Assembly (NCBI GenBank): GCA_964403585.1
Contig: CAYOFQ010000001.1
Coordinates: 12,456 to 76,455 of the forward strand
Origin: an uncultured Gammaproteobacteria bacterium
GTDB lineage: Bacteria; Patescibacteriota; Microgenomatia; JALYQM01
DNA length: 64,000 nt
Direction: 5' to 3'
Below the pieces are notes generated by a model. The model was given only the letters and a program-made list of their open reading frames with translations. It did no database searches and had not been told where the DNA came from. How positions within the stretch are numbered: the first letter of the stretch is position 1; every line of letters begins with the position of its first letter. A program made the translations under genes and the position numbers. Positions 1,641 to 60,046 of the stretch are shown in pieces.

Positions 1641-1901
1641 AAAACCTCCTCAAGAATAATCACTCCCAAGAAGGCTACGTAAAATTAAGGAAATAAGAAA
1701 TATATTCCTGCTCGGGATGAATAACTTTTTGTCTGTTTTCTGACTTTACAGTAGCGGCACTGTCCCGGAATTCCACCGGAGTTACCAAAACAAAAAGAAT
1801 GTATATGCAAGGTATTAAATTTCTCGATTATTTGCAAGAAGAAATACCTGTCCAAAATTACCTATTTTTTTTAAACCAATTTTGATATAGTACAGATAGC
1901 T

Positions 1902-4900: not shown

Positions 4901-7900
4901 TAGCTCTGGTGAAATAACCCAAAACTTAATCGAATTGCAAATGCAATTGGATTCACAAGCCATCAAGAAATCCGACGAAGAAAAAATTCTGGCATTACAA
5001 AGAGCATATATTGGATCCAGAGAAGACCAGCGTCGACCCGCAACATCAGGTGAACTAAATGTACTGAAGCGTGGTTTAGAGGAAACCAACTGGTACGACC
5101 GCGGAAATTTCTTAGCCTCAACCACCGATAACGCCACCAGATCAGTTGAAAAACATGTCGGTGATATATTAGAAAAACTTGCTGAGCAGGACCCGTCAAT
5201 AAGATCCAGATTAGCCGGTACAGCATTCAGTGCTATTAAACGCGATACTGCCAGCGCGGTAATGCAGGATTTGGCCGCCACTACGAGTAAATCTGAAGTA
5301 CAGTTTTCTATTCTTTCTACACTAAAAACTACACTTGAGGATAAAGTTACCGAACTTACCGGAAAAAAGGTTAAACTTGATCCGGGATCCACTGCCGGTG
5401 ATCTCTTAGCCAATTCGGCGTCAAAACTCGCCGGAGATAAAAAAGTCCAGGCAGCCGCCGCCATGCAATCAATCATGCCTATCGTCCCCCATATGACCGA
5501 CGAAGTTGAAGAAGGCGATTTATATGGACACCGTGAAGCCATGCGCGAAATGATGGCTCAGGATTACGAAAAAGGCGTTCGTGACATTCAAAAAAATCTT
5601 GATCGGGAGATTAAAAGAGGATTACGAAAATACCGAAAAGCAGCCAGTACTCCCCCACCGGATTCTTCATCAGGAGTAATCATCACCGAAAGAGGAGAAA
5701 AAGCCTCGCAAAGTTTCGACCGAGCAGCAGCATTAATCGTTAAAGAAATAAATCCTACTTTAAACCTCGATATAAGCACTCAATACGAACTTCGTGAACA
5801 AATTGAGCTTTCATTAGTTGGCATGGCTTCAGCAGGAAAATCTCGCGCCGAGATGCGCGCCAAAGTACAAGAATTAGTAACTAAATACGCTGGCAACGTC
5901 TCAGACGATGTCCTAACTGCAGCATTAAAACACGCGGATTTTATGGCCGAAGGCCAAACCAGAGCAGGTCGACGGTTATTTAAAAAAGCCATGGCTGGTC
6001 CGGAAAACCCGCAATCATATGGCAATGATCTCCGCGATCAGGCCATCCAGGGAAGTTTTGACCAGACCGCCAATCGTCTCGCCAGCAAAGCCGCTAAAAC
6101 ATTTTCCATGGATGCTTATGATGAAGGCGAACTAAGACGACAAATATCTGACATGCTTGTCACCATGGCCCGTCAGGGTAAAACACAAGCAGAAATGCAA
6201 AGCAGCATCTCAAACTTGATCCAGCAGACCATTAGCACCACTGAAGGCGGTAAATTCCTCGCCGAAAGAGAACGGGAAAGCAAAATTGTCACCGGTAATC
6301 AGGCAATCTATCTTAGCCGAAAACAAAAGAGAGATCAGTTCTATCGTGAAGATGCCTCCATGTCAATTGCATCCCTTCTCGAAGCTGTACGTTCTGCAAA
6401 TCCAAACATCACTGATGACCAACTCAATGCCATTGCTGAAAACACCATTACCAACACGATGGGTGGACTTAAAATCGTCCCTATTCAAGCCAAAAAAGAT
6501 AATGGCGACCTGATGTTTGATAAAGATGGTCAGCCGGTTTATGTGACCAACGGGAAAGATGCTGATGGCAATGACCTGATTGAATATAAACTGGAAGAAG
6601 GCAGTAGTGTTTTCGGTGTCAACGGTATCATGGGCCTCTCAAAAACCCAGCTCCGTATGATGGCGAAAATGTCCCCTGCCGAACAACTGGAATACCTTTC
6701 CAAATTTGATGAGCTGCGACGACAGCAAATATTTAGCTCTTTATCCATCTCCTTAAAACACGAATTAATGCAATTTGGAGTGTGGACTCCTCAAATGGAG
6801 AAAAAACTCAACAGTCTACGCTTGAAAGATTTTTACGACCGCGACCAACAAGAAAGTTATATTAATAGCGCCATCGCCGATGCTCAAAACAAAGTTGGTC
6901 GACCATTAACCAATTCGGAAATTGCCCAAATCCGAGCAGAAATGAGCGCTAAATTAAATAAGAAGATGTCCGTTCAGGATGCTATCGCCTTCCACATGGA
7001 GCGCGGGTATTCCCTTGACCACTTTGTTAAACAATTCCGCGAAGATACGTTAAGGAAAATGCGCAACAACCGCGAAGATGAAGCATCCTTCTATGACTTA
7101 TCTCGAGCAAGAAACTCATTTAGTAATAATATCAACACCATTGAAGCATTACTCGATCCAAGATTTGCCCAGAAATATGCCCGCCGCAAAGTAAGAGCGT
7201 ATAAACGGGATGCTCAAAAATTCATACTTGGCGCCGTTGGAATCGATAAAGACTCTTCCTGGACTGCCTGGTTTGGCAGTATGGTAAACGGCACCTTTCA
7301 GCAAAAAATGATTGGCCATGAAAAAAATCTCGCCGCACTCTCTAAAAAATACAAAATGGATGTGGCTCAAATTGCCAAAACTGGAATCAAACCGAAAAAT
7401 ATATCGTTATTTAAGAGTTTAGAATTAGACCGAGCTATTCGCTCCCAACGCGGCTTAGACGCCATCAAAAAAGCCCGCGAAGCCAACCCGCGACTCGCAT
7501 TCCTCTTCGATAAACGCGCGCAACGCATGCAAAGTAATAAATATGAATTTTCTGCCGAATTGTTCGAAACCCTCCTCCACGGTTCAGCAGGAATTAAAGC
7601 GCTTCCTGGAGTTGTCTCCAGTAGATTAATGAATGCAACCATCAACAAAATACTTACCGAGGGCAAAGGTTTCCGTAACTTTTTTGTCTACGATCGCAAA
7701 AGCAGGCAAATTCTCTTTACTCCCTATGAAGAACTAAAAATGAAGCGCGATGAAGCAGTGAAACAGCTCAAGGAAGCAGCGTGGAATTCACGGCCAATGA
7801 TGTATGCGCGCGAACAGGGAGATAAAGTTAAAGAATACGCTAAAGATCAATTTAAGAAATATGTTTGGGATTCAAAGCCGGTCAAAGCAGTTAGAAATCG

Positions 7901-10544
7901 TGTCAAAATGGCCGTTGCCAAAGTGGCCGGTAATGCCGTAGTTAAAGGTATACAAAGTTTAGCTACTAAAATAGCCGCTCGACTAACCCTAGAAGGTATT
8001 CTTGCTGTACTCCCTACCGGTGTAACCCAGGTTGCCGCTTTAATATTGGCAATCGACACAGCTTTAAGTTCAATACCAATTGTTAATATTATCTATGGTG
8101 CTATAAAATTCGTTGTACTTACACCTTTACGCTGGCTTTGGAAGTTAATCAAGATCATCGCCGCCATCGAAGCGTTACTGGCACTCTACGCGATATATCG
8201 CCTTGCGATGTTTGCTGTTCAATTATTGCATGCCGTTGCATCGGTGGCCGCTATTGGAGGCGCCGCTGGAACAATAACAGGATTTCTTTTAGGTGGAGTC
8301 CCCGGCGCATTTCTCGGCGGTATTATTGGCTGGGGCGCTGGTGCAATCGCCGGCACTGTCTTCCAGGCAGGAAAATTCTTATTCGGCAAATTAACTGGAG
8401 CACTCCAGGGAGGCGTTGCTATTGGAACCGGCGGAGCACTCGGTGCTCTTATGCCGGGATGGTTAAGTGGTTTCCTTTCAGGTGGCGTATCCGCACTTTC
8501 CTTTGGATTATTCAGTGTCCCGGCAGCCTTACTTAACGTTGCCGTTGCCTCAACCAGTGCTATCGCCGGATGGCTCACTTCCATGGGTGCGGCACAAGCA
8601 CTCGCAGTAGTATCCACGGGAGCCGCTATCGGCTTAACTGCACTTTTCAGCCCTGCATATATCACTGCCGTGATGGAATCGCTGCGTAAACCACTGGATA
8701 AAGCAGTGGGCGAATTAGCTACTTTCTCTTATCCCCTGCAGGTGACCAAAATCGCAGATAAAACTAAAGTTAACCAAAACGGTGAACAAATTAAATATAC
8801 GATCACGGTCAGTGGTCCTGCTTGTAGCCCAACTCTAACAGTAACAGATAAATTACCGGATACCCTCACCTTTGATCCATCTGTTCCACCTTCATTTGGA
8901 ACTCCACTCGATCCGTTAGTAGACAGCATCACACCACCAACTGGGCCAGACGCCAATAATACCTTAACCTGGACAATTAAATTGAAGCCTACAGCCGGCG
9001 AGTCCTGTAATGCTGCCCAAATAGATACCGGAGCAAACATCAGTATTCTGGACCCCAATAAGAACTTAGTCAGCTTGGCAGATATGCAGGCATTATTAGC
9101 AGCCTATCCAGGTGGATCATTCAAACCAATGAAGGATACCGCCCAATACTTTATTGATGGACAACAAAAATATGGAATTAATCCTCTCTTTGTTGCCGGA
9201 ATCGCCGCCTTCGAATCAACCATGGGAATCGGTGGAATTGGACGCCCTCCAAATCAGGCAGGTACCTCCGGTTGTTATAATGCCACCAACCTGAAATCAC
9301 CTAACACAAATATTCCTCAAAAATATGGCGGCACACGAGACTGTACCAACCCGGATTTCTGGAGATTCCCCAGCTATGAAGCCAACCTGGCCGCAACCTA
9401 CGAATGGATCCAAACCTATCATGTAAATAAAGGTGAAACCGATGTTGATTCCATCATGGCTCGGTATCAGGGCACGGATGACTTACGTAACACCGAAGTA
9501 GCCATCATTAAATGTACTATGAAAACTAAACGAGTTTGTTCTGATGGATCTGGCGGTGGTGGTGGCACTACTGCCCCAACCTTTACCGCAACCTTAACCT
9601 TTGCCGGCATCGCCAATGCACCAAAGTCAGGCAATGGACCAAATGGTGATGGCTGTATCGTCAATACAGTTACAGCACAGCTCGGAAGCTCAGGCGATGT
9701 ACTTACCTCAACAGGTGGAGCAACTACTGCTGTCGGTCCGGCAAAATGTAATGAATTACAATCATTACCTCAGGGAACCATTGCCGAAGCCAAAGCGTTT
9801 ATGTGTTCCCATCCAACTATCAAAATATGTCCAACAGTCGGTACTAAATACCCGCCTAACTCAGACTGGACACGTGAGCAACTTGAAGCATTGTGGACTG
9901 TTGCGCAAAAAGTCTATCAGGCTGAACCGTATCGCAGCTACGCTGTTGGAAACTATGGAATCGAAGTACAACGCAGCCGCTGCTACATCTACTTTAGTGC
10001 AGTGAACTGTCCTCCAACCGGTGCCGACGGAAAATCCGATAATACACAGGGGTTCAATCAAGGTGTTGATGCCAGCTTCGCAACAATGCAATTCTCAGCA
10101 GGCGTCACACCGAAAGTAGTATTAATTATGAACGGCATCGGTAGCATTAACGGGAACAACGACATACTACAATACCTTTATGCCCACGAAATTGCCCACT
10201 CCGCACAAAAAGGTACCGCCAGTGGCGGTATCGGTGACCGCACCAGAAATCCAGCCAACCAACCGGTACTGGCTCTGAACGAAGTTGTCAGCTTATACGG
10301 AGCACCTACAACCTATTGTATCTCTACTGGTGGACGTTTGCGCTGCGGAAGTGGCCTTCCCTTTGAAAATAACGCTGACGCAATCTCCTACTACATGACC
10401 AACGGTGAGGTTGGCGGTAACTATCGCGCCTGGACCGGTAACACCAACAATTTGAAAACTGATCATCCAAACACCTATAATGCTCTCATGAATGGTTTCT
10501 TTGCTACCGGAGCAAGTGGAGGTCCGCAAGAATATGGCCCTTAA
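1902..10544 (+). CDS. Giant 2880-aa multidomain surface/membrane protein: ~2000-aa charged helical region with internal repeats, glycine-zipper TM region, DUF11-like domain, FlgJ-like glucosaminidase domain, poly-Gly linker, Cys-containing C-terminal domain with HExxH
   Basis: A single open frame of 8.6 kb. Motifs read in the translation: GxxxG-rich hydrophobic block (AIGGAAGTITGFLLGGVPGAFLGGIIGWGAGAIAG...), a DUF11-like stretch (GEQIKYTITVSGPACSPTLTVTDKLPDTLTF), a glucosaminidase-like stretch (QKYGINPLFVAGIAAFESTMG ... FPSYEANLAATYEWI), and HEIAH near the C-terminus. Confidence 0.85.
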   Translation: MNRDLERLQYILQQLSQTLEELPADDFIKTRNDRLAIYQQLKDKYPELVKRLEDEPNGSKAFERGVIVDLISAIATDLNKPVWTAIPTNRDELIKEYIDSLEASPTQSSVAQSYQRVMQARKPGQTSFHQASNAFDEIYDSTQKIINPENVQFPADHSDRARDNKVVADQLSTRIAEIVAENSFGDPEERADTIEEEINEAYRQMYNVSGVTKRHQEVIRREAERLAALPVETPEIPSSGNALTDEIAKKIATVTIGQQVTPEQIAETAQAITPQVQAAINNPATDKTPDQQVAEVIRQGVEQTIAPLVDSPAIDKYLRTSTNSFVDIQSVENFREELPQAVQQTAYQSVNEAVQQQRGISPEAVQAYQDPQVQQALQRAIDTTANTLKVAANPRDNATAIQEAAQSIMAQEVYTSLKDDPRYQQWNRDKAGYEQVAPSLQELVTIAAGGMASGFMDKQAEHAVALAQRDVAAAPPVEAVRSTARQIVDSVKASLPSDINLSRDEEQQLYSKVVNTIDDNTYQLRPSPVETLKEKIATDIEEVVINGPQRETLDLSGTLQQIEPQIEPALGRYNFELTKAAAEKSLDYLEAQAKAAFPAAETVSIKAEDFPAPPAPTQEVIVTGRGERAAEVFTRPASLIVKEVTPTLQLDAQEQADLQERLELTLTGMASAGKTRQEMQQRVAEIIAENPKGVDSDTLDAALKHADFMAEGQAKVGRRQFNKVMAGPEDARVYDTNAGQEPATSELAGKYAQSMLNNIDGESASTKSIVDDVARTLKLDNQERRTLQAQLGAEFSGMVADGRTQQEIKERAAEIVSAIHEEKYKELKEKTKQTKEEKETLEKAEKALKTALEQVNNQEPPERSRQIAGQLIDSMQKQAASGAWKDEQAQRELAAYAAQREELIRAFEVAKMSGDVAEMDTLHKLIIDNDRHFIASNQNTMLASYYDSGSVEKYQNERLQKIAAAKEAYKERQAEIQQQMDENRITAQEGLDALKRLHKDSSGEITQNLIELQMQLDSQAIKKSDEEKILALQRAYIGSREDQRRPATSGELNVLKRGLEETNWYDRGNFLASTTDNATRSVEKHVGDILEKLAEQDPSIRSRLAGTAFSAIKRDTASAVMQDLAATTSKSEVQFSILSTLKTTLEDKVTELTGKKVKLDPGSTAGDLLANSASKLAGDKKVQAAAAMQSIMPIVPHMTDEVEEGDLYGHREAMREMMAQDYEKGVRDIQKNLDREIKRGLRKYRKAASTPPPDSSSGVIITERGEKASQSFDRAAALIVKEINPTLNLDISTQYELREQIELSLVGMASAGKSRAEMRAKVQELVTKYAGNVSDDVLTAALKHADFMAEGQTRAGRRLFKKAMAGPENPQSYGNDLRDQAIQGSFDQTANRLASKAAKTFSMDAYDEGELRRQISDMLVTMARQGKTQAEMQSSISNLIQQTISTTEGGKFLAERERESKIVTGNQAIYLSRKQKRDQFYREDASMSIASLLEAVRSANPNITDDQLNAIAENTITNTMGGLKIVPIQAKKDNGDLMFDKDGQPVYVTNGKDADGNDLIEYKLEEGSSVFGVNGIMGLSKTQLRMMAKMSPAEQLEYLSKFDELRRQQIFSSLSISLKHELMQFGVWTPQMEKKLNSLRLKDFYDRDQQESYINSAIADAQNKVGRPLTNSEIAQIRAEMSAKLNKKMSVQDAIAFHMERGYSLDHFVKQFREDTLRKMRNNREDEASFYDLSRARNSFSNNINTIEALLDPRFAQKYARRKVRAYKRDAQKFILGAVGIDKDSSWTAWFGSMVNGTFQQKMIGHEKNLAALSKKYKMDVAQIAKTGIKPKNISLFKSLELDRAIRSQRGLDAIKKAREANPRLAFLFDKRAQRMQSNKYEFSAELFETLLHGSAGIKALPGVVSSRLMNATINKILTEGKGFRNFFVYDRKSRQILFTPYEELKMKRDEAVKQLKEAAWNSRPMMYAREQGDKVKEYAKDQFKKYVWDSKPVKAVRNRVKMAVAKVAGNAVVKGIQSLATKIAARLTLEGILAVLPTGVTQVAALILAIDTALSSIPIVNIIYGAIKFVVLTPLRWLWKLIKIIAAIEALLALYAIYRLAMFAVQLLHAVASVAAIGGAAGTITGFLLGGVPGAFLGGIIGWGAGAIAGTVFQAGKFLFGKLTGALQGGVAIGTGGALGALMPGWLSGFLSGGVSALSFGLFSVPAALLNVAVASTSAIAGWLTSMGAAQALAVVSTGAAIGLTALFSPAYITAVMESLRKPLDKAVGELATFSYPLQVTKIADKTKVNQNGEQIKYTITVSGPACSPTLTVTDKLPDTLTFDPSVPPSFGTPLDPLVDSITPPTGPDANNTLTWTIKLKPTAGESCNAAQIDTGANISILDPNKNLVSLADMQALLAAYPGGSFKPMKDTAQYFIDGQQKYGINPLFVAGIAAFESTMGIGGIGRPPNQAGTSGCYNATNLKSPNTNIPQKYGGTRDCTNPDFWRFPSYEANLAATYEWIQTYHVNKGETDVDSIMARYQGTDDLRNTEVAIIKCTMKTKRVCSDGSGGGGGTTAPTFTATLTFAGIANAPKSGNGPNGDGCIVNTVTAQLGSSGDVLTSTGGATTAVGPAKCNELQSLPQGTIAEAKAFMCSHPTIKICPTVGTKYPPNSDWTREQLEALWTVAQKVYQAEPYRSYAVGNYGIEVQRSRCYIYFSAVNCPPTGADGKSDNTQGFNQGVDASFATMQFSAGVTPKVVLIMNGIGSINGNNDILQYLYAHEIAHSAQKGTASGGIGDRTRNPANQPVLALNEVVSLYGAPTTYCISTGGRLRCGSGLPFENNADAISYYMTNGEVGGNYRAWTGNTNNLKTDHPNTYNALMNGFFATGASGGPQEYGP
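3757..4107 (+). repeat. Intragenic ~115-aa repeat unit, copy 1, inside the giant gene (SLIVKEV..LTGMASAGKTRQEM..LKHADFMAEGQAKVGRRQF..AGPED)
   Basis: Protein-level and ~75% nucleotide-level similarity to copy 2 at 5674-6023. Shorter versions of the GM(A/V)xxG(K/R)TxxE(M/I) motif also occur near 4270-4350 and 6130-6230. Confidence 0.7.
5674..6023 (+). repeat. Intragenic ~115-aa repeat unit, copy 2, inside the giant gene
   Basis: ALIVKEINPTLNLD..LVGMASAGKSRAEM..LKHADFMAEGQTRAGRRLF..AGPEN aligns with copy 1. Confidence 0.7.
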
Positions 10545-11175: not shown

Positions 11176-11495
11176 AGTATTCCCGACCAGTAACGAACTT
11201 TCTTAATAACCCCCTTACCGAGTATTTCGTGCAAACAAAATACCAGCTTACGCTCCTTCATCCGAACCTCATGCCCCCAAACGGAAGAAGCCACAGCTAA
11301 AGTGAGTACACCATCTTTAAAAGATTTCGCCCGTACATTTCCCACCGCTTTTTCACCAAGAATTTTTCCAATCTCCTTTTGCACAACCTCCACCACCCGC
11401 GCCGCATCCATAGCTGCCGGATCACCCGAACGTTCAGCAACTGCAGATAACAAATCTGAAACTTTAACAAAAGACATAGTAGGATTATACGTCAT
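11172..11495 (-). CDS. DUF721-family protein (small conserved protein usually found downstream of dnaN/recF)
   Basis: The C-terminal pattern DGVLTLAVASSVWGHEVRMKERKLVFCLHEILGKGVIKKVRYW matches the DUF721 consensus (dGtLtvevdspawaqeLs...I.frv). It sits downstream of dnaN and shares an overlapping TTAA stop with the upstream convergent gene. Confidence 0.65.
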   Translation of the reverse strand: MTYNPTMSFVKVSDLLSAVAERSGDPAAMDAARVVEVVQKEIGKILGEKAVGNVRAKSFKDGVLTLAVASSVWGHEVRMKERKLVFCLHEILGKGVIKKVRYWSGIL

Positions 11496-11539
11496 ATATA
11501 AATAACTTTTTTTAGTAAAATTAAGGATCTGCTGTTTGT

Positions 11540-11675
11540 TTTACGAAGCGAGGACTTCCGCTGAAGGGAGCCAAATCGCAATAAGCGACCGAATACTTAC
11601 ATTAAGAACAAAAAAGACAGAGAGCGAGAAGACGTAAACTACGAAAGACTGAGCATCCGCAGCGAGTAAAACGAA
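11540..11675. repeat. Intergenic repeat element, copy A (GCGAGGACTTCCGCTGAAGGGAGCC...GAGCATCCGCAGCGAG)
   Basis: Shares 5' and 3' conserved blocks with the copies at 14690-14845, 35195-35400 and 50365-50480. Confidence 0.6.
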
Positions 11676-11692
11676 TACAGATCCTACTAAGT

Positions 11693-12817: not shown

Positions 12818-13205
12818 TTACCTCCTCACTTTCTATTATTATGAGAGTTTTCTCATTTAAAGAGAATTTATACGTGTGTAGGTGATACTACACTAAGTGC
12901 TACCAATTGTAAATTTTCTTCTCTTCTGTCTATTATCTTTATTTCTTATATATAAATATATAGTATTCTTAGTAATATACTCTGTGTATATCTGCATAAC
13001 ACGGTTACAGTGAAGCTAGCTTTTTTGTGGAATTAGCCGTTAATCCAACTGTAATAGTCTATCTCCTCTACTCTATCCTATATCATACGTAGTACTTTCG
13101 GATTATATTAGCCTTGATAACTTATACTATTTTGTGGATATCTTTGTGGATTACTTTTTTATTCTGTGGATAACCTACTTTTACTTATCCACACATGACT
13201 AAAAG
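12818..13205. other. Chromosomal replication origin (oriC): AT-rich unwinding region plus a cluster of DnaA boxes between dnaA and dnaN
   Basis: AT-rich stretch at ~12890-12990 (ttatatataaatatatagtattcttagtaatatactctg). DnaA-box-like 9-mers: tgtggaatt ~13027, ttgtggata 13132, tgtggatta 13146, tgtggataa 13165, ttatccaca 13185, ttatccaga 13206, and tgtggataa 13261 just inside the dnaA 3' end. Confidence 0.8.
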
Positions 13206-14657
13206 TTATCCAGATAGCTCCTGTTTTATCAACTGTATTTCACGACGGATTTGTTCATTTGTGGATAACGCCAATTCTATCTGCTTCACTCCATGCATGA
13301 CGGTAGTATGGTCTCTTCCGCCCAGTAACTCCCCTACTCTCTCGAGTGGTAAGCCCATTTCGGAATTAAGAAGATACATGGCAATCTGCCGTGGTATTAC
13401 CAGGTTCTTAGTTCGACGGGTTCCCAGCAGATCAGACTTCTTAATAGCGAAGTGATGGTGGATAACTTGCAAAACACGTTGTGGATTAATGGCATTCCCG
13501 AGGCTGACCGATTGAGTGGACTCTTCACCCCAGGCGGTCCGGACATTTTCCAGTGTCCCGATCCAGCCGTTCGTCTTTAATTTTGAAATTATTTGAAACA
13601 ATTTACCTTGTAATTCTCTGGTATTACTGCTGATACGTGACGCTAAGAAATCTACGGCATTCGGCTCTATATGTTCACCCATATCCTGACATTTAGTCTG
13701 AATAATTGCCACCCGCATTTCATAATCCGGCAAACCTACGTCGACCATCATTCCGCCTTTAAACCGCGAGGACAATCGTTCTTCCAGTTGCGGAATTTCC
13801 TCCGGCGTTCTATCCGAAGTCATGAGCACATGCCCGCCGCGCCCGACAATGTCATTAAATGTATGGAAAAACTCTTCCTGAGTACTGTCTTTCCCGGCTA
13901 TAAACTGAATATCATCTACCAGAATAATGTCACAGGAGCGGTAGCGCTCTCTAAACTTGTCCGTGGATTTAGTTGAAATACTATATATATATTCATTAGT
14001 AAATTTTTCAGATGAAAAATAAAGGATCTTCTTATTTGGGAATTTAGACAACACCGCATTCCCGACTGCCATCATCAAGTGGGTTTTGCCTAACCCAACC
14101 CCGCCATATATAAAAAGCGGATTGTATCCCTTACCCGGATTTTGCGCGACCGCCTGAGAGGCCGCATACGCCACGTTATTACTTTTGCCGACTATAAAGT
14201 TGTCGAAAACCAGATTAGGATTGAGCCCATTAAAAACACTCCCTCCCCCACTCCCTGCCGAAGTAGATACGGAATTTTGACGAACCGGAGGTGCAATATC
14301 ATCAATCTGCATGGTCGTATCTGCATAAACCTCTTCATTCTGCTGTACAAATAGCGGAGCCTGAACCCTATCCTGCTCCGGCCTGGTTCGGGCAGAATCC
14401 TTTATCTTTGCCTCCACAAACACCAGCTCTACTTCCTCAGGATAATATTCCTCAATCATTGAAGGAATCATCCCTTTAAATTTTTTCGTCAGTTCCTGTG
14501 CCGAGAATAAGCTCGACACCCCAATCGTCCAGGTATTACCGTCAACCGACACTACATCGGTATTATGAAAGTGCAATTTATACACCCCCACCGACAAGGC
14601 ACCCTTAATATCTTTTAATACTTTTTTCCAGATAGACTGTGCTTCTTCGAGAGTCAT
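13206..14657 (-). CDS. dnaA: Chromosomal replication initiator protein DnaA
   Basis: Walker A GGVGLGKTHLMMAVGN, an AAA+ domain, and a C-terminal DNA-binding helix-turn-helix region. Classic dnaA-dnaN context. Confidence 0.92.
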   Translation of the reverse strand: MTLEEAQSIWKKVLKDIKGALSVGVYKLHFHNTDVVSVDGNTWTIGVSSLFSAQELTKKFKGMIPSMIEEYYPEEVELVFVEAKIKDSARTRPEQDRVQAPLFVQQNEEVYADTTMQIDDIAPPVRQNSVSTSAGSGGGSVFNGLNPNLVFDNFIVGKSNNVAYAASQAVAQNPGKGYNPLFIYGGVGLGKTHLMMAVGNAVLSKFPNKKILYFSSEKFTNEYIYSISTKSTDKFRERYRSCDIILVDDIQFIAGKDSTQEEFFHTFNDIVGRGGHVLMTSDRTPEEIPQLEERLSSRFKGGMMVDVGLPDYEMRVAIIQTKCQDMGEHIEPNAVDFLASRISSNTRELQGKLFQIISKLKTNGWIGTLENVRTAWGEESTQSVSLGNAINPQRVLQVIHHHFAIKKSDLLGTRRTKNLVIPRQIAMYLLNSEMGLPLERVGELLGGRDHTTVMHGVKQIELALSTNEQIRREIQLIKQELSG

Positions 14658-14689
14658 AAACTTTATTTCATAAAGTGTGCGAATTATTT

Positions 14690-14845
14690 GATTTGCGCAG
14701 CGAGGACTATCCGCCTGTTGAGCCGGAGTCGAGTAGTTGCGTAACGAGCGAAGGCGAAATTACAAACCTTACGACTAGTAATAGTTCGAGAGCGCAACTG
14801 CTGGATAAAAGCACAGCCCGAGCATCCGCAGCAAGCAAATCAAAT
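14690..14845. repeat. Intergenic repeat element, copy B (GCGCAGCGAGGACTATCCGCC...CCGAGCATCCGCAGCAAG), in the rpmH-dnaA intergenic region
   Basis: Same conserved end blocks as copies A, C and D. Confidence 0.55.
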
Positions 14846-15050
14846 TAGAGCACAACGTAAAGGAAGGCTAATACCAAGATATTAACGTCTTATCCCCAAC
14901 AATACAAGACCAAAAATGAGTCTAAAACCTATAGTTTTTCCACAAAAAAAACACATTATCAACATCGAAAACAACGCCCTGTAGGCACAAAAACTGTGAA
15001 GCGAACACACTAATTGACACAATATCAAAATATACAGTATAATCCCCGTT

Positions 15051-15194
15051 ATGAAACGTACCTGGCAACCAAAAAAGACCAAAAGACTCCGTAAACACGG
15101 CTTTTTATCTCGCATGGCAACCCGCCTCGGAAGAAAAGTATTAGCACGTCGCCGCACCAAAGGCCGAGTAAAACTCACAGTTTCTGCTAAATAA
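15051..15194 (+). CDS. rpmH: 50S ribosomal protein L34
   Basis: Manual translation gives [47 protein letters not shown] (47 aa). It is below the 60-aa cutoff of the ORF track and canonically precedes rnpA. Confidence 0.9.
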
Positions 15195-15238
15195 TACCCA
15201 CTTCTCCTGGTTTAAGCGAAATAAGATATAATATACCC

Positions 15239-15595
15239 ATGTTACCTAAAAGCAATAGGCTGAATATCCGTACATATTTTGGTGAGATTCGCGGCACCGG
15301 TAAGAAGCTAAGCTCACCCTACTTTTCTTTTTATTATCGCCTTTCAGAATCGGGATCAACTCCGCAAATTAGCTGTGTAATATCAAAAAAGGTTGCCAAG
15401 TCCGCCGTCAAAAGAAACCGAATGAGACGACTCCTGAATACAGCCGCTAAATCACACTTGGACAAAATTAACCCGTCTTTGCAGGGGTTATTTTTCGTAT
15501 ATAAAGATTTCTCACACCTTAAAAGTCAGGACCTCTCCGAAGTAATTAAAAACGTCTTAGACTCAGGAGGTCTACTGGACCACCATCATGATTAA
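15239..15595 (+). CDS. rnpA: Ribonuclease P protein component
   Basis: Small basic protein ([12 protein letters not shown]...[10 protein letters not shown]) in the rpmH-rnpA-yidD-yidC order. Confidence 0.8.
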
Positions 15596-15794
15596 GTTGT
15601 ATCAGAGATTCATCTCTCCCCTACTCCATCAAATCTTCCCCACCTCTGTAAGTGGATGCAGATTTTATCCCAGTTGCTCCGAATATACCCACCTCGCCAT
15701 CGAAAAATACGGATTACTGCACGGCACGTATAAAGGAATTCTGAGATTTTTACGCTGTAACCCCTTCTTTAAAGGCGGCATCGACTATCCATAG
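15588..15794 (+). CDS. yidD: Membrane protein insertion efficiency factor YidD
   Basis: LYQRFISP...[14 protein letters not shown] is the conserved YidD motif. Overlaps the rnpA stop. Confidence 0.85.
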
Positions 15795-15836: not shown

Positions 15837-16601
15837 ATGTGGAATTTACTTGATGTACCGTATCAGATAATCTTTCAAAGCCTTATATATTTATATTCCG
15901 TTCTCTTTGAGAATTTTGGATTGGCAATTATTGCACTGACAGTCCTTATCCGGGCCCTGCTTCTCCCTTTCACCCTTCCTGCTACCCGAACACAGAAAAA
16001 AATGGTGGAGCTTAAACCAAAACTTGACGAGTTAAAAGCCCAGCATGGGCATGACAAAAGAAAATTATCCGAAGAACAACTAAAACTCTACCAGGAGCAC
16101 GGAGTAAATCCGCTTGGCGGATGCTTACCTCAAATAGTACAAATTGTCCTTCTCATCGTCTTGTATCAGGTATTCATCACTTTCCTTGACCCAACCAAAG
16201 GCCACAAGCCCCCTATGATTAACGGCAATCCGGTACATACTGCTTTTCTCTGGTGGGATCTGGCTAAAAAAGACCAGTTCTATGTGCTTCCTGTTCTGGC
16301 CGGCATTACCCAATTCATTATGTCCAAGATGATGCTTCCGAATACCAAACTGGAAATCAAAAAGAACGACTCCAAAGCTGAGAAAAAGGAAAAAGAAGAC
16401 ATTGCCGATGTCATGCAGGAAGTCCAGGGTCAGATGGTCTATATGATGCCGGTAATGACTGTCTTTTTCAGCTTAAACTTCCCTTCCGGGTTGGCGTTGT
16501 ACTGGATCGTCGGCAACATTTGTTCTATCGTCCAGCAATATTTCATCACCGGCTGGGGTAGCTTGCCTGACCTCTTAAAATGGTTTAAAAACTCCAAATA
16601 A
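15837..16601 (+). CDS. yidC: Membrane protein insertase YidC (short form)
   Basis: LLLPFTL...Q.KM..L.P....LK....D...L..E...LY.EHGVNPLGGCLP.L.Q matches the YidC/Oxa1 core, followed by several TM helices. Confidence 0.85.
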   Translation: MWNLLDVPYQIIFQSLIYLYSVLFENFGLAIIALTVLIRALLLPFTLPATRTQKKMVELKPKLDELKAQHGHDKRKLSEEQLKLYQEHGVNPLGGCLPQIVQIVLLIVLYQVFITFLDPTKGHKPPMINGNPVHTAFLWWDLAKKDQFYVLPVLAGITQFIMSKMMLPNTKLEIKKNDSKAEKKEKEDIADVMQEVQGQMVYMMPVMTVFFSLNFPSGLALYWIVGNICSIVQQYFITGWGSLPDLLKWFKNSK

Positions 16602-16674
16602 ATCCGCTTTACGGGTGAGCCTAACCAGTGTATAATCCCCTAAGTAAAATAAAAAAGTAAAGAAAAGAAATTGT

Positions 16675-17142
16675 ATGGATACAGTTCAAATCATTGGTAC
16701 TTCTACACAAGAGCTTCTTGCTCATCTTAAAATACCTGCCAAAGTGGCAGTTTCTGAATTTAAAGATGACAACGATAAAACAGGTTATAATGTTGAAATT
16801 TCCGGTGAAGACCTCGGAGTACTGATTGGGTATCATGGCGAAACCTTAAGCCACCTACAGCAGGTTCTAGCACTCGTAGTAAACAATAAGTTAGAAGAGT
16901 GGGTTCGTATCATCGTAGATATCGACGGCTGGAGACAACAGCGCAAAGAAGCGATCTCCTCACTTGTCCAGCAAGCAGTACAAAAAGTCCGATCGTCAGG
17001 ACAATCTCAGGTGTTACCTCCAATGTCTGCACACGAGCGACGCATAGTGCACACTGAAATAATTAACTATGACGATATGACATCTCATTCTGAAGGCGAA
17101 GGTCTTTCGCGAAAAGTCATCATCGAACGAAAAAGAGATTAA
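16675..17142 (+). CDS. jag: Jag/KhpB RNA-binding protein (KH + R3H domains)
   Basis: GEDLGVLIGYHGETLSHLQ (KH-like) and the R3H segment SAHERRIVHTEI. Canonical position after yidC. Confidence 0.75.
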   Translation: MDTVQIIGTSTQELLAHLKIPAKVAVSEFKDDNDKTGYNVEISGEDLGVLIGYHGETLSHLQQVLALVVNNKLEEWVRIIVDIDGWRQQRKEAISSLVQQAVQKVRSSGQSQVLPPMSAHERRIVHTEIINYDDMTSHSEGEGLSRKVIIERKRD

Positions 17143-27403: not shown

Positions 27404-27586
27404 AGGAACTCCTTTCAAGTGGTGCGTTCAGGACCGTTGGCGCAGTGCCAAACCAAATCCCTCGAGCGAACGCGGAAAGCTATTAAGATACCCGTATTTT
27501 ACAACAAATAGCAGTATCCGCCTAGAGACAGTTGGCGTGAGTGGGGAAATACGCTAGAATTGAACTACAGTAAGGAGGAAATAAGT

Positions 27587-34721: not shown

Positions 34722-35189
34722 ATGAGCGAAGTCTTTGAAAAAATAAAACAACTCCTTGATGCGCAAAAAGTTCAGTACACGCTTACTGAGCACGAACCCG
34801 TCCGAACTAGCATCGAGGCTGCCCAAATCAGGGGCGTCGATCTCTCCACCGGAGCCAAAGCCATGGTCGTCAAAGCCAATAATCAATACTATTTAATAGT
34901 CATACCCGCAGACCGTAAAATCGACTGGAAACTGGTAAAGTCACTTCTAAACACCAAAGAAATCCGTTTTGCTACTGAAGAAGAAGCCGAGCAGGTAACT
35001 CAAGTAAAAATGGGATCCGTTCCGCCGTTTGGCAACATTCTCGGATTACCAACCTACTTTGACCAGTTAATTCGCGACAAAGAAACCGTCCATTTTAACC
35101 CCGGCAGCCTCCGCCATTCTATCGGCATGAAAGCAGCAGATTTAATACGGCTGGTTAGCCCGACAATATCTTCCGTTTCTAAAGAATAA
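34722..35189 (+). CDS. YbaK/ProX-family aminoacyl-tRNA deacylase domain protein
   Basis: HEPVRTSIEAA......GAKAMVVKANNQYYLIVIPADRKIDWKLVK.LL......FATEEE....T....GSVPPFG matches the YbaK trans-editing domain pattern. Confidence 0.65.
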   Translation: MSEVFEKIKQLLDAQKVQYTLTEHEPVRTSIEAAQIRGVDLSTGAKAMVVKANNQYYLIVIPADRKIDWKLVKSLLNTKEIRFATEEEAEQVTQVKMGSVPPFGNILGLPTYFDQLIRDKETVHFNPGSLRHSIGMKAADLIRLVSPTISSVSKE

Positions 35190-35194
35190 GTAGT

Positions 35195-35400
35195 TACAGC
35201 GAGGTATTGTTCTTTTGCGAAGTCGAACTTCCGCCCTAGAACCAATTCGAAGAATTAAATTATTTCGCCGCGAGGACATCCGCTGGAGGGAGCCGAACAC
35301 GCAATAAGCGACCGAATGACAAGGTTACTAATGCACAGCGTAAGGGGGCAAGTTAACATTAAGGTGCACTGTCTGAGCTTCCGCAGCAAGAAATAATTTA
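35195..35400. repeat. Intergenic repeat element, copy C (tandem 5' block: TTTGCGAAGTCGAACTTCCGCCC... then GCCGCGAGGACATCCGCTGGAGGGAGCCGAACACGCAATAAGCGACCGAATGA...GAGCTTCCGCAGCAAG)
   Basis: The longest copy. Its internal part is about 85% identical to copy A over roughly 50 nt, and its first block resembles copy D. Confidence 0.6.
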
Positions 35401-35416
35401 ATCGAGAATTTTACAA

Positions 35417-36352
35417 TTACAAACCCTGCACCACACCGCGTGGGTTAAACGGCACATCATTTCGGTGGATTTCGAAGTGCAGGTGAGGACCTGACGAATG
35501 ACCGGTGGTTCCGACTAATCCCAATACAGTACCGGTACCAACCTGCTGGCCGGTAGAAACATTTATTTTACTCATGTGAGCATAAAGCGTCTGAACCCCA
35601 TTGGCGTGCTGTACATAAACTACATTTCCGTAACCCCACAAACTCCAACCGGCTGAAGTAACATAACCGTCAGCTACCGGATAAATCGGCGTACCTGAAT
35701 CGACGACCAGGTCCATACCGGGATGCCCCGCGCGGAAGTACGTCGAGATCTGTTTTAACGGTACTTTCAATGGGTTAAGATATACACCGTTAGAGGAAAC
35801 TGCCGGGGGAATAAAGTTCTCCGGGAGTTTTTGCGCAACACCGACCTTAGATAAATCCTGAGCCGCAACATATTTCTTTACCACAGGAGCCGGAGTAGGG
35901 GTAGGAGCTAACTCGGTAACGATCGGCATCATAGCCGCGCGAACTTCTGCCGACGCGGTAGCTGTAGCCGAAGGGCTTGCCTGAATTTCAACTACTGCTT
36001 CTTCGGCAAAGGCAATACCTTGCTGGTTGATTACTACATAATATTGACCATCAAACTGACGTAACATTGGCTGGTATAAGAAGAAGAGTACTGCTATTCC
36101 GGCAATCGAACCGCCGAAGAACATATGCAGATTCGAGTTAGTGATAATTAAACGACCGAGACGTGAGAACCAGTTAGTTCCAAAACGGGGATTCCACAAT
36201 CGCTGGACAAATCCAATAGACAGGAAAGATACCCTAATCTTCTTTAGAACGTAATTGAGTGCAAATACGATCAAAGAAAGAGGGAACGTTAAGATATAAA
36301 ACACACTCTTAACGATCGAATATAACTCCAAAAACAATTTCAACAGTACCAT
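35417..36352 (-). CDS. M23-family (LytM-like) metallo-endopeptidase with N-terminal TM anchor
   Basis: HPGMDL...D.G...YP.ADG.V and GTTGHSSGPHLHFEIH are the M23 HxxxD and HxH motifs. Confidence 0.8.
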   Translation of the reverse strand: MVLLKLFLELYSIVKSVFYILTFPLSLIVFALNYVLKKIRVSFLSIGFVQRLWNPRFGTNWFSRLGRLIITNSNLHMFFGGSIAGIAVLFFLYQPMLRQFDGQYYVVINQQGIAFAEEAVVEIQASPSATATASAEVRAAMMPIVTELAPTPTPAPVVKKYVAAQDLSKVGVAQKLPENFIPPAVSSNGVYLNPLKVPLKQISTYFRAGHPGMDLVVDSGTPIYPVADGYVTSAGWSLWGYGNVVYVQHANGVQTLYAHMSKINVSTGQQVGTGTVLGLVGTTGHSSGPHLHFEIHRNDVPFNPRGVVQGL

Positions 36353-50124: not shown

Positions 50125-50364
50125 AGATATCTAAAAGATATCACGAGCAAAAATCGTGCGCAACTTGACAAATAAGCACAACAAACCTATACTTAGCCCT
50201 TAGTTAAGCAAAAAATATAGCGGGGTAGTGTAAAGTGCACGTGAGGCTCATAATCTCACAGACCCGGAGCGTTACCGGGCCCCGCAACACAGAAAATACC
50301 GATCTCGAAAAGGGGTCGGTATTTTGTTTTTTAATACGATGCCTGTTTGACTGTGAAACTTATT

Positions 50365-50480
50365 CGGCTTTGCGCAGGCGAACTTCCGCCCTGGGGTAAG
50401 TATACGCTGGGGATAAGTCCGTGGGGTGAATAGAGATTAAGAAAGATAAACTGGAGCATGTTCGGCTAGCAAAACGAATA
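50365..50480. repeat. Intergenic repeat element, copy D (TTTGCGCAGGCGAACTTCCGCCCTGGGG...CTGGAGCATGTTCGGCTAGCAAAACGAATAAG)
   Basis: The 5' block matches copy C's first block and copy B's start. The 3' block is degenerate relative to A and B. Confidence 0.5.
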
Positions 50481-50574
50481 AGTGAGCAGGTTATCTTAGG
50501 CAGCCAGGTAGTCATCAATATAAGAGAACTATAGATTTTCCTACACAAGTACGGTAAAATCGTAAAGACCAACT

Positions 50575-50646
50575 GGCAGGGTAGCTCAACGGTGGAGCAA
50601 TGGAATCATAACCCATCGGTTGTGGGTTCGAGTCCCACCCCTGCCA
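50575..50646 (+). tRNA. tRNA with CAT anticodon (Met, or Ile2 if lysidine-modified)
   Basis: Cloverleaf folded by hand: acceptor GGCAGGG/CCCTGCC, D arm GCTC..GAGC, anticodon stem ATGGA/CCCAT with one A-C mismatch, loop ATCATAA, T arm GTGGG-TTCGAGT-CCCAC, discriminator A. CCA is not encoded. Confidence 0.75.
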
Positions 50647-50885
50647 CACTAAGCATTGTGCAACACATGCCCCTGACCCGTAACCGCCCGAATCACCCCC
50701 CCGGCATCCCTTGTTCAACTAACTTCTCTCGTAAGCGCTGCATCTGCTTATTAATCGCCTGTAGAGAAAAATCGTCCTCCGAATCTTTCCACAAAATCTT
50801 CCCAAAACCTACGGCGTTTTATTCGAGGCTCAGAGCCGCGGTAATAGGGCATTGTAAGCGATAGGTAGTAGGGGATTTTTGTAAT

Positions 50886-51386: not shown

Positions 51387-52262
51387 ATGATTCCATTACA
51401 CGAAGCCCACTCCAAGTTTATTGGTCACCTTAATGATAAGAAACGTTCCAAGTCTACCGTTTTGGCCTACGGTAAAGATATTGAGCAATTGCTCCAGTAC
51501 CTCAAAGGGAGTGGCGTAACCCACGTTCACCATGTCAAAAAAGACGACATCGAAAAATTCATGAAGAAATTAACCGATGAAGGGTACACATCCAAGAGTA
51601 TATCCCGTAAAACCAACTCCACCAAGACCTTCTTTCGCTATCTCCAGATCAACGAGTTCATTTCAGATGATCCGGCCGCATTGGTAGCACATCCTTCATA
51701 CGAAACCAAAGCACCGCGTATCCTTTCCAAAACCGAATACCGCGCGCTTCGCGATTCAGCTAAGAACGATATCCGTATTTACACTATTATAGAACTGCTT
51801 CTTCAGACCGGAATTCGTATTGGAGAGCTTGCTAACTTAAAGATTGAAGACATCTCCTTTGGCGAAGAAAATATCCCCGGCGAAATTAGAGTAACCGAAG
51901 CCGGAAAAATGAATCGCTCCATCCCGCTTAATAAGTCCTCGGAAGCTGCCTTAAAGAAATATTTGGAAATTCGACCTCAAGTTAAAGAAAAAACATTATT
52001 TATTACTAAAACCGGACGACCATTACTGGTACGCAATATCCGCACCGCTATCGATAGATACTTCAAGCTTGCCGGTATTAAGAATGCCAAGGTCAATGAC
52101 CTCCGACACACCTTCGTAGCACATCACCTGAAAGCCGGAGCTAACTTAGTCTTAATTTCCAAACTCGCCGGACACAAACGCATTTCAACTACTGAAAAGT
52201 ATTTGGAATATATTCAGCCGGACGAAGAAACAACCGATAAAGTTAAATTAGAAGAACTCTAA
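51387..52262 (+). CDS. Tyrosine site-specific recombinase, XerC/XerD family
   Basis: N-terminal SAM-like domain with TVLAYGKDIEQLLQYL. Catalytic LRHTFVAHHLKAGANLVLISKLAGHKRISTTEKYLE contains the R...HxxR...Y signature. Confidence 0.8.
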   Translation: MIPLHEAHSKFIGHLNDKKRSKSTVLAYGKDIEQLLQYLKGSGVTHVHHVKKDDIEKFMKKLTDEGYTSKSISRKTNSTKTFFRYLQINEFISDDPAALVAHPSYETKAPRILSKTEYRALRDSAKNDIRIYTIIELLLQTGIRIGELANLKIEDISFGEENIPGEIRVTEAGKMNRSIPLNKSSEAALKKYLEIRPQVKEKTLFITKTGRPLLVRNIRTAIDRYFKLAGIKNAKVNDLRHTFVAHHLKAGANLVLISKLAGHKRISTTEKYLEYIQPDEETTDKVKLEEL

Positions 52263-56257: not shown

Positions 56258-56330
56258 GGGCCGCTAGCTCATTTGGTAGAGCGCCTCGTTTGCACCGAGG
56301 AGGTGAGGAGTTCGAGCCTCCTGCGGTCCA
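56258..56330 (+). tRNA. tRNA-Ala (TGC)
   Basis: Acceptor GGGCCGC/GCGGTCC with a G3:U70 pair (the alanine identity element), D arm GCTC..GAGC, anticodon stem CCTCG/CGAGG, loop TTTGCAC, T arm AGGAG-TTCGAGC-CTCCT. Confidence 0.85.
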
Positions 56331-56664
56331 CACACCAGTAAGATGTCTTTATGATGGTGTCAGTGAGTATTTCGGTACTCGCCGCCATCATAAAGCTATC
56401 TTAAATTGACGACCATAGCCTTAACAGGGAGTCAAGCAGATAATAGCTTGCCACTGGTTACGAGCCAGTATTAGTACCTTAACAAGTGAATAGTGAAATA
56501 TATCTCAATTTAAATCTAACAAGGTTTTTTTGAGTGTAATTCCGCATCTGATTTTGTCGCAAGACAAAATCACTCAGACACGTAAGTGTCTGAGTACAAT
56601 GATCAATTTAATATTGATCACCTTTGAAGATAAAAAAATATAAAATGTAAATGTTAAAAACTAC

Positions 56665-59590
<2,926 letters not shown>

Positions 59591-59925
59591 ATTGCGAACG
59601 CATACCTATGTGCGGAGCAATTTACCCTGAGCTATAAGCGAAGGGTTAGCATTTACATTAATAGGACAAATCGGAATTACAAAATTGACTTTCAGGAGTC
59701 CGGAATCGGGAGAAACGAACATCCCGCAAGGGAAAATTCCATGGATCTTCCGGTTCCATACTTCTGTCTGCGTTCACTATTCACTTTTTAAGGTACTAAT
59801 AAGCCGAAAGCGAAGACACTTTGTCGAGCCTTAGGTCCTGAGCTATAAGCGAAGGAAAACATTAACATTAAAATCTCGAATGAGTAATCGAAAAATAGGG
59901 TAGGAAGTTCATACTTTATTTCTCG

Positions 59926-60026
59926 GTTATTCGAGCGACATGGTACCACCTCTTCCCATCCCGAACAGAGAAGTGAAACGTGTTAGCGGTGACGATACTG
60001 GGGTCGCAAGGCCCGGGGAAAATAAC
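59926..60026 (+). rRNA. rrf: 5S ribosomal RNA
   Basis: CCACCTCTTCCCATCCCGAACAGAGAAGTGAAACGTGTTAGCGGTGACGATACTGGGG is 5S loop B/C/helix IV-like. The ends are approximate. Confidence 0.75.
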
Positions 60027-60046
60027 TCATAGCCGGGATTAACATC

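Follow-up and report, generated by a model that had tools for sequence, protein, structure and literature searches.

A family of dispersed palindromic repeats with covarying stems, possibly mobile, in an uncultivated small-genome bacterial lineage

The 64,000-nucleotide stretch analyzed here (the window; contig CAYOFQ010000001.1, positions 12,456 to 76,455) carries a family of dispersed palindromic repeats, non-coding and 145-212 bp in length, each copy of which is a long imperfect hairpin formed by its two arms. On balance, and with modest confidence, these repeats are best regarded as a new family of non-autonomous elements resembling MITEs (miniature transposable elements with inverted repeats). 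The whole hairpin, stems included, is copied to new intergenic sites, and some copies, those of the tRNA-Met and dnaN-dciA spacers, are subsequently inherited vertically. The pairing of the arms is maintained while their sequence drifts. Old copies seem to decay or to be overlaid, leaving orphan arms. The lineage is a deep-branching, uncultivated one with small genomes from which, to our knowledge, neither mobile elements nor RNAs were previously known, and it thereby gains a repeat family.

Elements of the MITE type are shorter than about 200-400 bp, possess inverted arms, can form long RNA stem-loops, differ in distribution between related strains and in some cases retain their structure through compensatory change (PMC3184786; PMC10969869). 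The repeats described here are likewise small, contain no conserved open reading frame (ORF), occur as dispersed copies and are present at some and absent from other orthologous sites. As regards the terminal inverted repeats (TIRs) of MITEs, the arms are inverted over 25-45 nt in each copy, and the outermost 10-20 nt differ between copies, which leaves a transposase no terminal sequence common to all of them.

A covariance model was built from the repeat copies and used to scan the window with all filters off at E<=10. The model detects exactly four full copies, all on the plus strand, with E values of 1e-13 to 1e-29, and the next-best match has an E value of 0.3. Copy A (11525-11684; model match 11534-11678, 136.9 bits) occupies the spacer between dnaN and dciA, in antisense orientation to the two genes. 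Copy B (14658-14869) is 212 bp long, with a core hairpin at 14677-14853 and a model match at 14686-14847. Copy C2 (35246-35406; model match 35256-35402, 129-136 bits) is a full element of the A type, and copy D (50338-50507; core 50351-50490; model match 50362-50481, 65-75 bits) is a divergent full element. All copies are intergenic, and A and C directly follow stop codons. The count of at least four copies given in the first-pass annotation of this DNA therefore stands, and the outward symmetry of the hairpins makes the elements longer than the blocks that it noted. A weak fifth copy that it placed at 27430-27540 is not recovered under the same permissive scan; this region merely has the 9-mer TATCCGCCT in common with copy B.

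ORF calls confirm that copy C lies between two convergent genes. C2 occupies the spacer 35190-35416 between a tRNA_edit-domain ORF (34722-35189, plus strand) and an M23 peptidase gene (35417-36352, minus strand). Directly ahead of C2 a pattern search locates C1 (35214-35245, plus strand), an orphan 5' arm of the D type that begins with TTTGCGAAGTCGAACTTCCGCCC and has no 3' arm; the covariance model stops short of it. The sequence blocks quoted earlier for copy C were all found. TTTGCGAAGTCGAACTTCCGCCC lies at 35214-35236 and its sole other match in the window is in copy D (50369-50391, 21 of 23 positions identical), the C2 block GAGGACATCCGCTGGAGGGAGCC has a single other match in copy A (11550-11572), and for both of these blocks zero such matches are expected by chance. 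Copies A, B and C have the 3' motif GAGCWTCCGCAGCRAG without any mismatch. A possible further 5'-arm fragment without partner, CAGCGAGGTATTG (35198-35210, plus strand), is a weak candidate identified solely by its likeness to GCGAGGAC. Thus the earlier description of C as a composite with two tandem 5' blocks holds for a complete C2 and one clear orphan arm at 35214-35245, while the second fragment is only possible.

Twelve of twelve elements fold better than their dinucleotide shuffles (z from -1.05 to -9.0), ten of them at or below a z of -2. The fold of copy A has a free energy of -42.6 kcal/mol (z = -4.6), and that of copy B a z of -3.1. Outermost in the hairpin is a short locus-specific helix (GGAUCUG/CAGAUCC in copy A); between it and the next helix there is often a loop rich in purines (5' GAAG versus 3' CGA). 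P1 follows as an AU-rich stem of 10-13 bp whose sequence is copy-specific and complementary within each copy, as in AUUUGAUUUGC/GCAAAUCAAAU of copy B. A stem of copy A, UGUUUGUUUUAC/GUAAAACGAAUA, includes two G.U pairs. Inside P1 lies a conserved 3x2 internal loop (5' G-C/A-A/C opposite 3' R-A), followed by the conserved inner helix P2 (GC-GAGGA/UCCGC-A-GC) with its conserved A.G mismatch and bulged A; in copy D the inner helix has CGAAC/GUUCG in place of GAGGA/UCCGC. The interior of 70-150 nt is variable, yet short blocks within it are kept in nearly all copies.

These parts can be followed along the plus strand of C2. The 5' strand of P1, AUUAAAUUAUUUC (35254-35266), pairs perfectly with the 3' strand, GAAAUAAUUUAAU (35390-35402). 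The 5' side of the internal loop, GCC (35267-35269; GCA or GAA in other copies), stands opposite AA (35388-35389) in the alignment consensus. The P2 5' strand GC-GAGGA (35270-35276) pairs with UCCGC-A-GC (35380-35387), four of the six pairs covarying across copies; this 3' strand, with the bulged A at 35385, forms part of the conserved 3' arm GAGCUUCCGCAGCAA (35375-35389). An interior hairpin, P3 (35288-35313), brings together GGGAGC (35288-35293) and GCGACC (35308-35313) with tandem G.A pairs, and was recognized by RNAalifold on the A-type copies.

Covariation was measured over 17 stem pairs, with 10 copies from five genomes aligned to the model (loci fetched from related genomes are referred to below by L numbers). 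In this alignment 87.4% of stem cells are paired, compared with 68% after shuffling, and 13 of the 17 stem pairs have changed on both sides, a number reached by none of 500 shuffles. Sliding the partner strand by 1-3 columns lowers the pairing to 39-51%. The covariation in P2 consists of GC>AU and CG>UA in L048, AU>CG in L046 and GC>AU in L054, which backs the register GC-GAGGA/UCCGC-A-GC; the register first given by RNAalifold for the inner helix was dropped. P3 is fully Watson-Crick in L046 (GGUAGU/ACUACC), a modest support that comes from a single varying lineage. When all 10 copies are taken together, RNAalifold yields no consensus for the interior, P3 emerging solely in the A-type subfamily. 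The alignment and covariation analysis thus bears out the earlier suggestion of a dispersed non-coding repeat with conserved secondary structure.

Five to six related genomes were compared at the syntenic dnaA region and across the stretch that includes the C and D sites. In about 300 kb scanned there are 10 full copies in five genomes; six of these lie outside the window, in about 250 kb from four related genomes. A check of copy number in relatives, as had been proposed, thus adds these six copies from the fetched loci. At the dnaN-dciA site the window has copy A and L046 a diverged ortholog, L047 and L048 are empty, and L045 has just an 18-nt hairpin, CGAACCGCTGAAGGTTCG. The yidC-jag spacer holds an element in L048 alone. 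For the C site, the equivalent spacers of relatives, beside the M23 peptidase gene and with different neighboring genes, yielded no element. The small hairpin of L045 (about 12962-12980; CGAACC GCTGAA GGTTCG in window orientation) resembles the inner helix plus the CGCUGAAGG block, and may be a remnant or a minimal form of the repeat.

Relationships among the copies cut across these sites. Window copy A is most similar to the copy in the tRNA spacer of L052, over its full length including P1, and the likeness ends at the element edges. Copy B has its outer arms in common with L054 and its interior in common with L004. Therefore the whole hairpin is the unit that is copied, and the subfamilies span species. 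The same subfamilies recur at unrelated sites in different genomes, and the orphan arms and doubled stems adjacent to C2 and in L054 resemble insertions that have decayed or been overlaid.

Copy B is a precise 212-bp insertion relative to the empty site of the closest relative, L049. Where L049 reads GAGTCAT directly followed by AATACTAGAGATATTAAC, the window reads GAGTCATAA, then the 212-bp element (ACTTT...AAGGCT), then AATACCAAGATATTAAC. The site is also empty in L045-L048, and B is confined to the organism of the window among those compared. The flanks of B, CA(TAA)...(TAA)TACC against CA(TAA)TACT in L049, fit a TA or TAA duplication, which at 2-3 AT-rich base pairs could also be due to chance. 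Insertion of B into a pre-existing hairpin was considered and rejected; the empty site contains no palindrome, and therefore the stems arrived with the element.

This insertion lies between the dnaA promoter and DnaA box on one side and the dnaA start codon (CAT, 14655-14657) on the other, antisense to dnaA. The promoter, TTGTAT-17-TAATAT, overlaps the DnaA box TTATCCCCA (window region 14870-14960), and more DnaA boxes (TTTTCCACA, TTATCAACA) occur toward rpmH. In relatives the -10 element of the dnaA promoter ends about 10 nt before the ATG, and the dnaA mRNA is therefore nearly leaderless there. In the window, dnaA would instead have a leader of about 230 nt that contains the reverse-complement hairpin and a two-codon upstream ORF (uORF), or else the element end may provide a new start site. 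The mini-uORF in question, AUGAAAUAA, stands 5 nt ahead of the dnaA AUG and was left by copy B. With the promoter and DnaA box split from a start codon that is near-leaderless in all relatives, dnaA expression has presumably changed. The dciA and jag start codons are also preceded, at a distance of 6-8 nt, by extended -10 boxes (TGTATAAT; window 11484-11490, minus strand; L045-L049 before jag), which suggests that leaderless mRNAs may be common in the clade.

Copy D is situated between two tRNA-Met genes (50219-50288 and 50575-50647). The only terminator near any of the copies (50293-50325) belongs to the first of these genes and lies upstream of D, which is placed before the conserved promoter of the second. 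The same spacer is filled by orthologous copies in L052 and L053, and in L050 by a diverged hairpin (UUUGC...UUGAG/CUCAA...GCAAA) that is past recognition by the model. The arms of D and of the L052 copy differ at eight positions, none of which disrupts pairing: six represent three double compensatory changes (U-A>C-G, G-C>A-U and C-G>U-A), one converts a U.G to a C-G pair and one lies within an internal loop. Their interiors are strongly unlike, being of the D type in the window and of the A type in L052. Such clean compensatory evolution between orthologs offers a test case for distinguishing selection on RNA or single-stranded DNA structure from template-switch repair.

The spacer is also occupied in L056, which comes from a more distant relative; the hairpin of some 180 nt found there (about 256-435 on the minus strand of that locus) is apparently a different one, its 27-bp stem being near-perfect (z = -9), and has only GGAGCATCCG in common with the repeat family. 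The tRNA-Met spacer thus looks like a hot spot or safe harbor for palindromic elements. The first tRNA-Met gene itself (50219-50288) is 70 nt long according to ARAGORN, has its own TTGACA-17-TATACT promoter and a strong terminator, and is unlisted by the Rfam tRNA model at the gathering score; it adjoins the second tRNA-Met gene in all relatives.

If the repeats are indeed MITE-like, a transposase or recombinase acting in trans would move them. Such an enzyme may recognize the conserved loops and the inner helix and not the termini, and the movement may create a TA or TAA target duplication. Three routes could keep the arms paired. Selection might act on the hairpin in transcripts, an option prompted by the co-orientation of six of eight loci with their neighbors and by the processing of Correia and ERIC elements by RNase III or RNase E (PMC10969869). 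Alternatively, a folded single strand might be needed during movement. Lastly, pairing could persist without selection through template-switch correction of quasipalindromes, a process that makes imperfect inverted repeats more perfect (PMC7202029). Whatever correction of this kind takes place, the internal loops, the bulge and the mismatch have survived it, an argument for their being recognized by something. Side effects on the host would be those of such elements in general, namely mRNA hairpins that alter stability, processing or termination and, for copy B, a new 5' leader of dnaA.

Several observations weigh against a MITE-like nature. About 300 kb of the clade yielded neither a transposase of the repeats nor a matching full-length insertion sequence (IS). 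The sole IS630-family element seen (in L058) was rejected as a partner, its TIRs being unrelated to the repeats and aligning with them at scores that shuffled sequences also reach. Unlike the TIRs of classical MITEs, the outermost ends vary from copy to copy, conservation being internal, and a target duplication can be read at one site only, that of copy B, where it is 2-3 bp long and AT-rich. Interior blocks and subfamilies are conserved across genomes whose DnaA proteins are 73% identical, which suggests constraint beyond simple selfish spread, and the tRNA-spacer copy, which persists with strictly compensatory change, could have a host function. The locus L058, from a distant relative, contains both the IS630-family element (DDE_3, TIRs of 36 nt, TA at either end) and one of the IS3 family, at 14519-15612 and 15848-17024; transposases thus exist in the wider clade, though unrelated to the repeats.

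In how it works the family may resemble the Correia/NEMIS, ERIC, bcr1 and RPE repeats of other bacteria. Correia/NEMIS elements, which are MITEs of Neisseria, are also non-coding sequences of 100-200 bp with inverted arms that form a long hairpin in transcripts, are intergenic and vary between strains; they generate a TA target duplication, and in 5' leaders they can change expression or be cut by RNase III (PMC10969869; PMC3184786). They differ in having highly conserved 26-bp TIRs and hundreds of near-identical copies, whereas in the present family the termini vary, conservation is internal, the copies are very divergent and TA/TAA is seen at one site only. The bcr1 repeats of the Bacillus cereus group are dispersed sequences of about 155 bp at strain-variable sites, are transcribed, and show compensatory changes that keep their RNA structure (PMC3184786). 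Unlike the present repeats, with which they have no sequence relationship, they possess direct repeats of 5 bp (TTTAT), and their cruciform is made up of two stem-loops independent of each other. ERIC (enterobacterial repetitive intergenic consensus) sequences are imperfect intergenic palindromes of about 127 bp with size variants produced by internal indels, and their effect on mRNA stability depends on orientation (PMC10969869). Their consensus is well conserved across genera, in contrast to the copy-specific stems found here, and no similarity to ERIC was detected, E. coli not having been searched.

The first-pass annotation had called a structured repeat at this density unusual for a reduced genome, a view to which the RPE of Rickettsia are the classic counterexample. 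These are palindromic repeats of about 150 bp that form several families in small genomes and have no known transposase (PMC10969869). RPE often lie within protein-coding genes, where they keep the reading frame and encode a stretch of peptide; the copies described here are all intergenic and have no open frame, and by that description they are set apart from RPE. REP sequences and REPINs are likewise intergenic hairpin-forming repeats, mobilized by RAYT transposases, and according to Bertels and Rainey (2011) a REPIN is a REP doublet that folds as one long hairpin. REP sequences are 20-40 nt long, G+C-rich and highly conserved within a genome, with a conserved GTAG-like 5' tetranucleotide; the present elements, by contrast, are AU-rich, 145-212 nt long and divergent, and no RAYT or Y1_Tnp gene was seen in the fetched loci; they are thus not of the REP/REPIN type.

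Searches against known families returned nothing on the repeats. At the gathering score Rfam yields only rRNA, tRNA and AdoCbl-II matches in the whole window, and at E<=10 the four copies give three chance-level matches to snoRNA and Ocean-V families, far below threshold. The earlier statement that the repeats match no recognized non-coding RNA (ncRNA) family, such as SRP, RNase P, tmRNA or 6S, thus agrees with the search of the window and of each copy. Look-alikes of hammerhead, K-turn, GNRA-tetraloop, ZTP, SRP, RNase P and group II domain V motifs, noticed by eye, are inconsistent across copies and without Rfam support. A small protein gene was rejected after six-frame translation of the 10 copies, most of which have stops in every frame; the minus-strand open frame 'LLAADAQ' is merely the conserved 3' arm. 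A gapped pattern run against 185,579 GTDB species genomes found two true copies (in L004 and L008), and its eight further matches there, like all 31 matches in JGI metagenomes, are chance matches in G+C-rich coding sequences. Viral contigs gave 0 matches to the pattern, and plasmid and phage collections no blastn match. The covariance model can flag such elements so that annotation and ncRNA screens avoid calling them RNA genes.

It is possible, though considerably less probable, that the repeats represent a duplicated family of structured ncRNAs acting in cis or in trans, in which P1, the internal loop, P2 and P3 would form a protein-binding or catalytic RNA kept by the host. Much of the structural evidence is what such a family would display: strong covariation in P1 and P2, the replacement of tandem G.A by Watson-Crick pairs in P3 of L046, invariant unpaired nucleotides, the conserved bulge and mismatch, and interior blocks conserved across subfamilies and species. 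The tRNA-spacer ortholog, changed solely by compensatory or neutral steps, and the six co-oriented loci among eight point the same way. In well-aligned stems of the plus strand, G.U pairs are somewhat more frequent than A.C (roughly 6-7 versus 2 in hand-checked stems), but the gap is small and in the raw model alignment amounts to 6 versus 5. Neither these counts nor the folding energies of the two strands point decisively to one strand or one type of molecule. The copies have no promoter or terminator of their own, D lying in the gap between a terminator and a promoter, and A and B are antisense to all neighboring transcription. The orthologs at the D site are very unlike one another, one of them lacking about 30 nt that include a 'conserved' block and the L050 copy being unseen by the model, and RNAalifold gives no consensus interior over the 10 copies. 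Presence/absence polymorphism and orphan arms, finally, are typical of mobile DNA. The ncRNA gene implied by the first-pass annotation is therefore a weaker account than a mobile MITE-like element, given the site polymorphism, the missing promoter and terminator, and the orphan arms.

A bolder proposal, which we rate as unlikely, would make the repeats a mobile structured nucleic acid, that is, either a functional RNA that propagates or a single-stranded DNA (ssDNA) recombination site built on the attC principle for the Xer-like recombinase of the clade. The attC sites of integrons are recognized by structure: their paired sequence varies, as does their terminal structure, and they have a conserved unpaired spacer and an extrahelical base. 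If the proposal held, the conserved loop, the bulged A, the A.G mismatch and the interior blocks would be a recognition surface for a protein encoded by the host or by an element. It would also explain the stems that drift yet stay paired, the persistence of subfamilies across species and the clade-wide hairpin in the tRNA-Met spacer.

More improbable still is the narrower possibility of a folded ssDNA site like attC or an IS200/IS605 end, whose structure would be read by a tyrosine or HUH recombinase. Such a site would explain the variable stems, the conserved irregularities and the variable terminal part, and its architecture would parallel that of attC in the paired boxes, unpaired spacer, extrahelical base and variable terminal structure. 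G.U pairs are few in the stems, which are Watson-Crick almost throughout, and a XerC/D-like recombinase gene (51387-52262) conserved in all relatives is found about 0.9 kb from the D site. That recombinase, however, scores 80 bits against an integron-integrase cut-off of 265 and resembles a housekeeping Xer protein, the fetched loci show no Y1/HUH transposase, and there are neither cassette-like ORFs nor an array. The attC cores RYYYAAC/GTTRRRY are absent in all copies, and an identity with attC itself was rejected on this ground and because the neighbors are housekeeping genes, with no cassettes and no integron integrase.

It is very improbable that the repeats are convergent ordinary signals (bidirectional terminators, promoters or RNase III stems) or chance similarities: they are always intergenic, A and C come right after stop codons and every copy folds, but no intrinsic terminator (G+C-rich stem plus T-run) and no sigma-70 promoter (-35/-10 hexamers with 16-18-nt spacing) is found within the copies or at their edges, the long shared blocks have zero expected chance matches, the model E values are 1e-13 to 1e-29, B is located inside a 5' leader and D after an existing terminator, and the subfamilies recur at unrelated sites across genomes. 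The first-pass annotation had named ordinary terminator or promoter sequences as a finding that would overturn it, and no such signal lies in or beside the copies.

Two of the metagenome-assembled genomes (MAGs) that contain the repeat, L004 and L008, are relatives of the window organism, with DnaA proteins 73% and 88% identical to its own. A DnaA identical to that of the window is recorded on an NCBI contig of 1.57 Mb. Outside the clade DnaA identity falls to about 42%, the next matches being to Patescibacteria and Chloroflexota, and GroEL is no closer to that of E. coli than to those of other phyla. The low DnaA identity outside the clade marks the lineage as isolated and renders its label doubtful; the name 'uncultured Gammaproteobacteria' attached to related MAGs (L004, L008, L046, L048) is probably wrong.

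Some further features of the window and of the related loci deserve mention. The rRNA operon appears to be split, with tRNA-Ala, 23S and 5S rRNA genes at 56258-60038, protein genes directly upstream and no 16S rRNA gene in the window. An AdoCbl-II (cobalamin) riboswitch above the Rfam gathering threshold (1726-1796, minus strand) precedes the minus-strand ORF 1046-1471. A giant ORF of 2880 amino acids (1902-10544) adjoins the dciA-dnaN-dnaA cluster, and relatives have equally large, poorly conserved ORFs at the same position. Toxin-antitoxin pairs of PIN and MazE genes occur at varying places (L050, 19274-19899; L052, 2586-3246), where they replace or flank genes that are present in the window, and these insertions are a second indication that gene content is in local flux while the small genomes otherwise remain syntenic.

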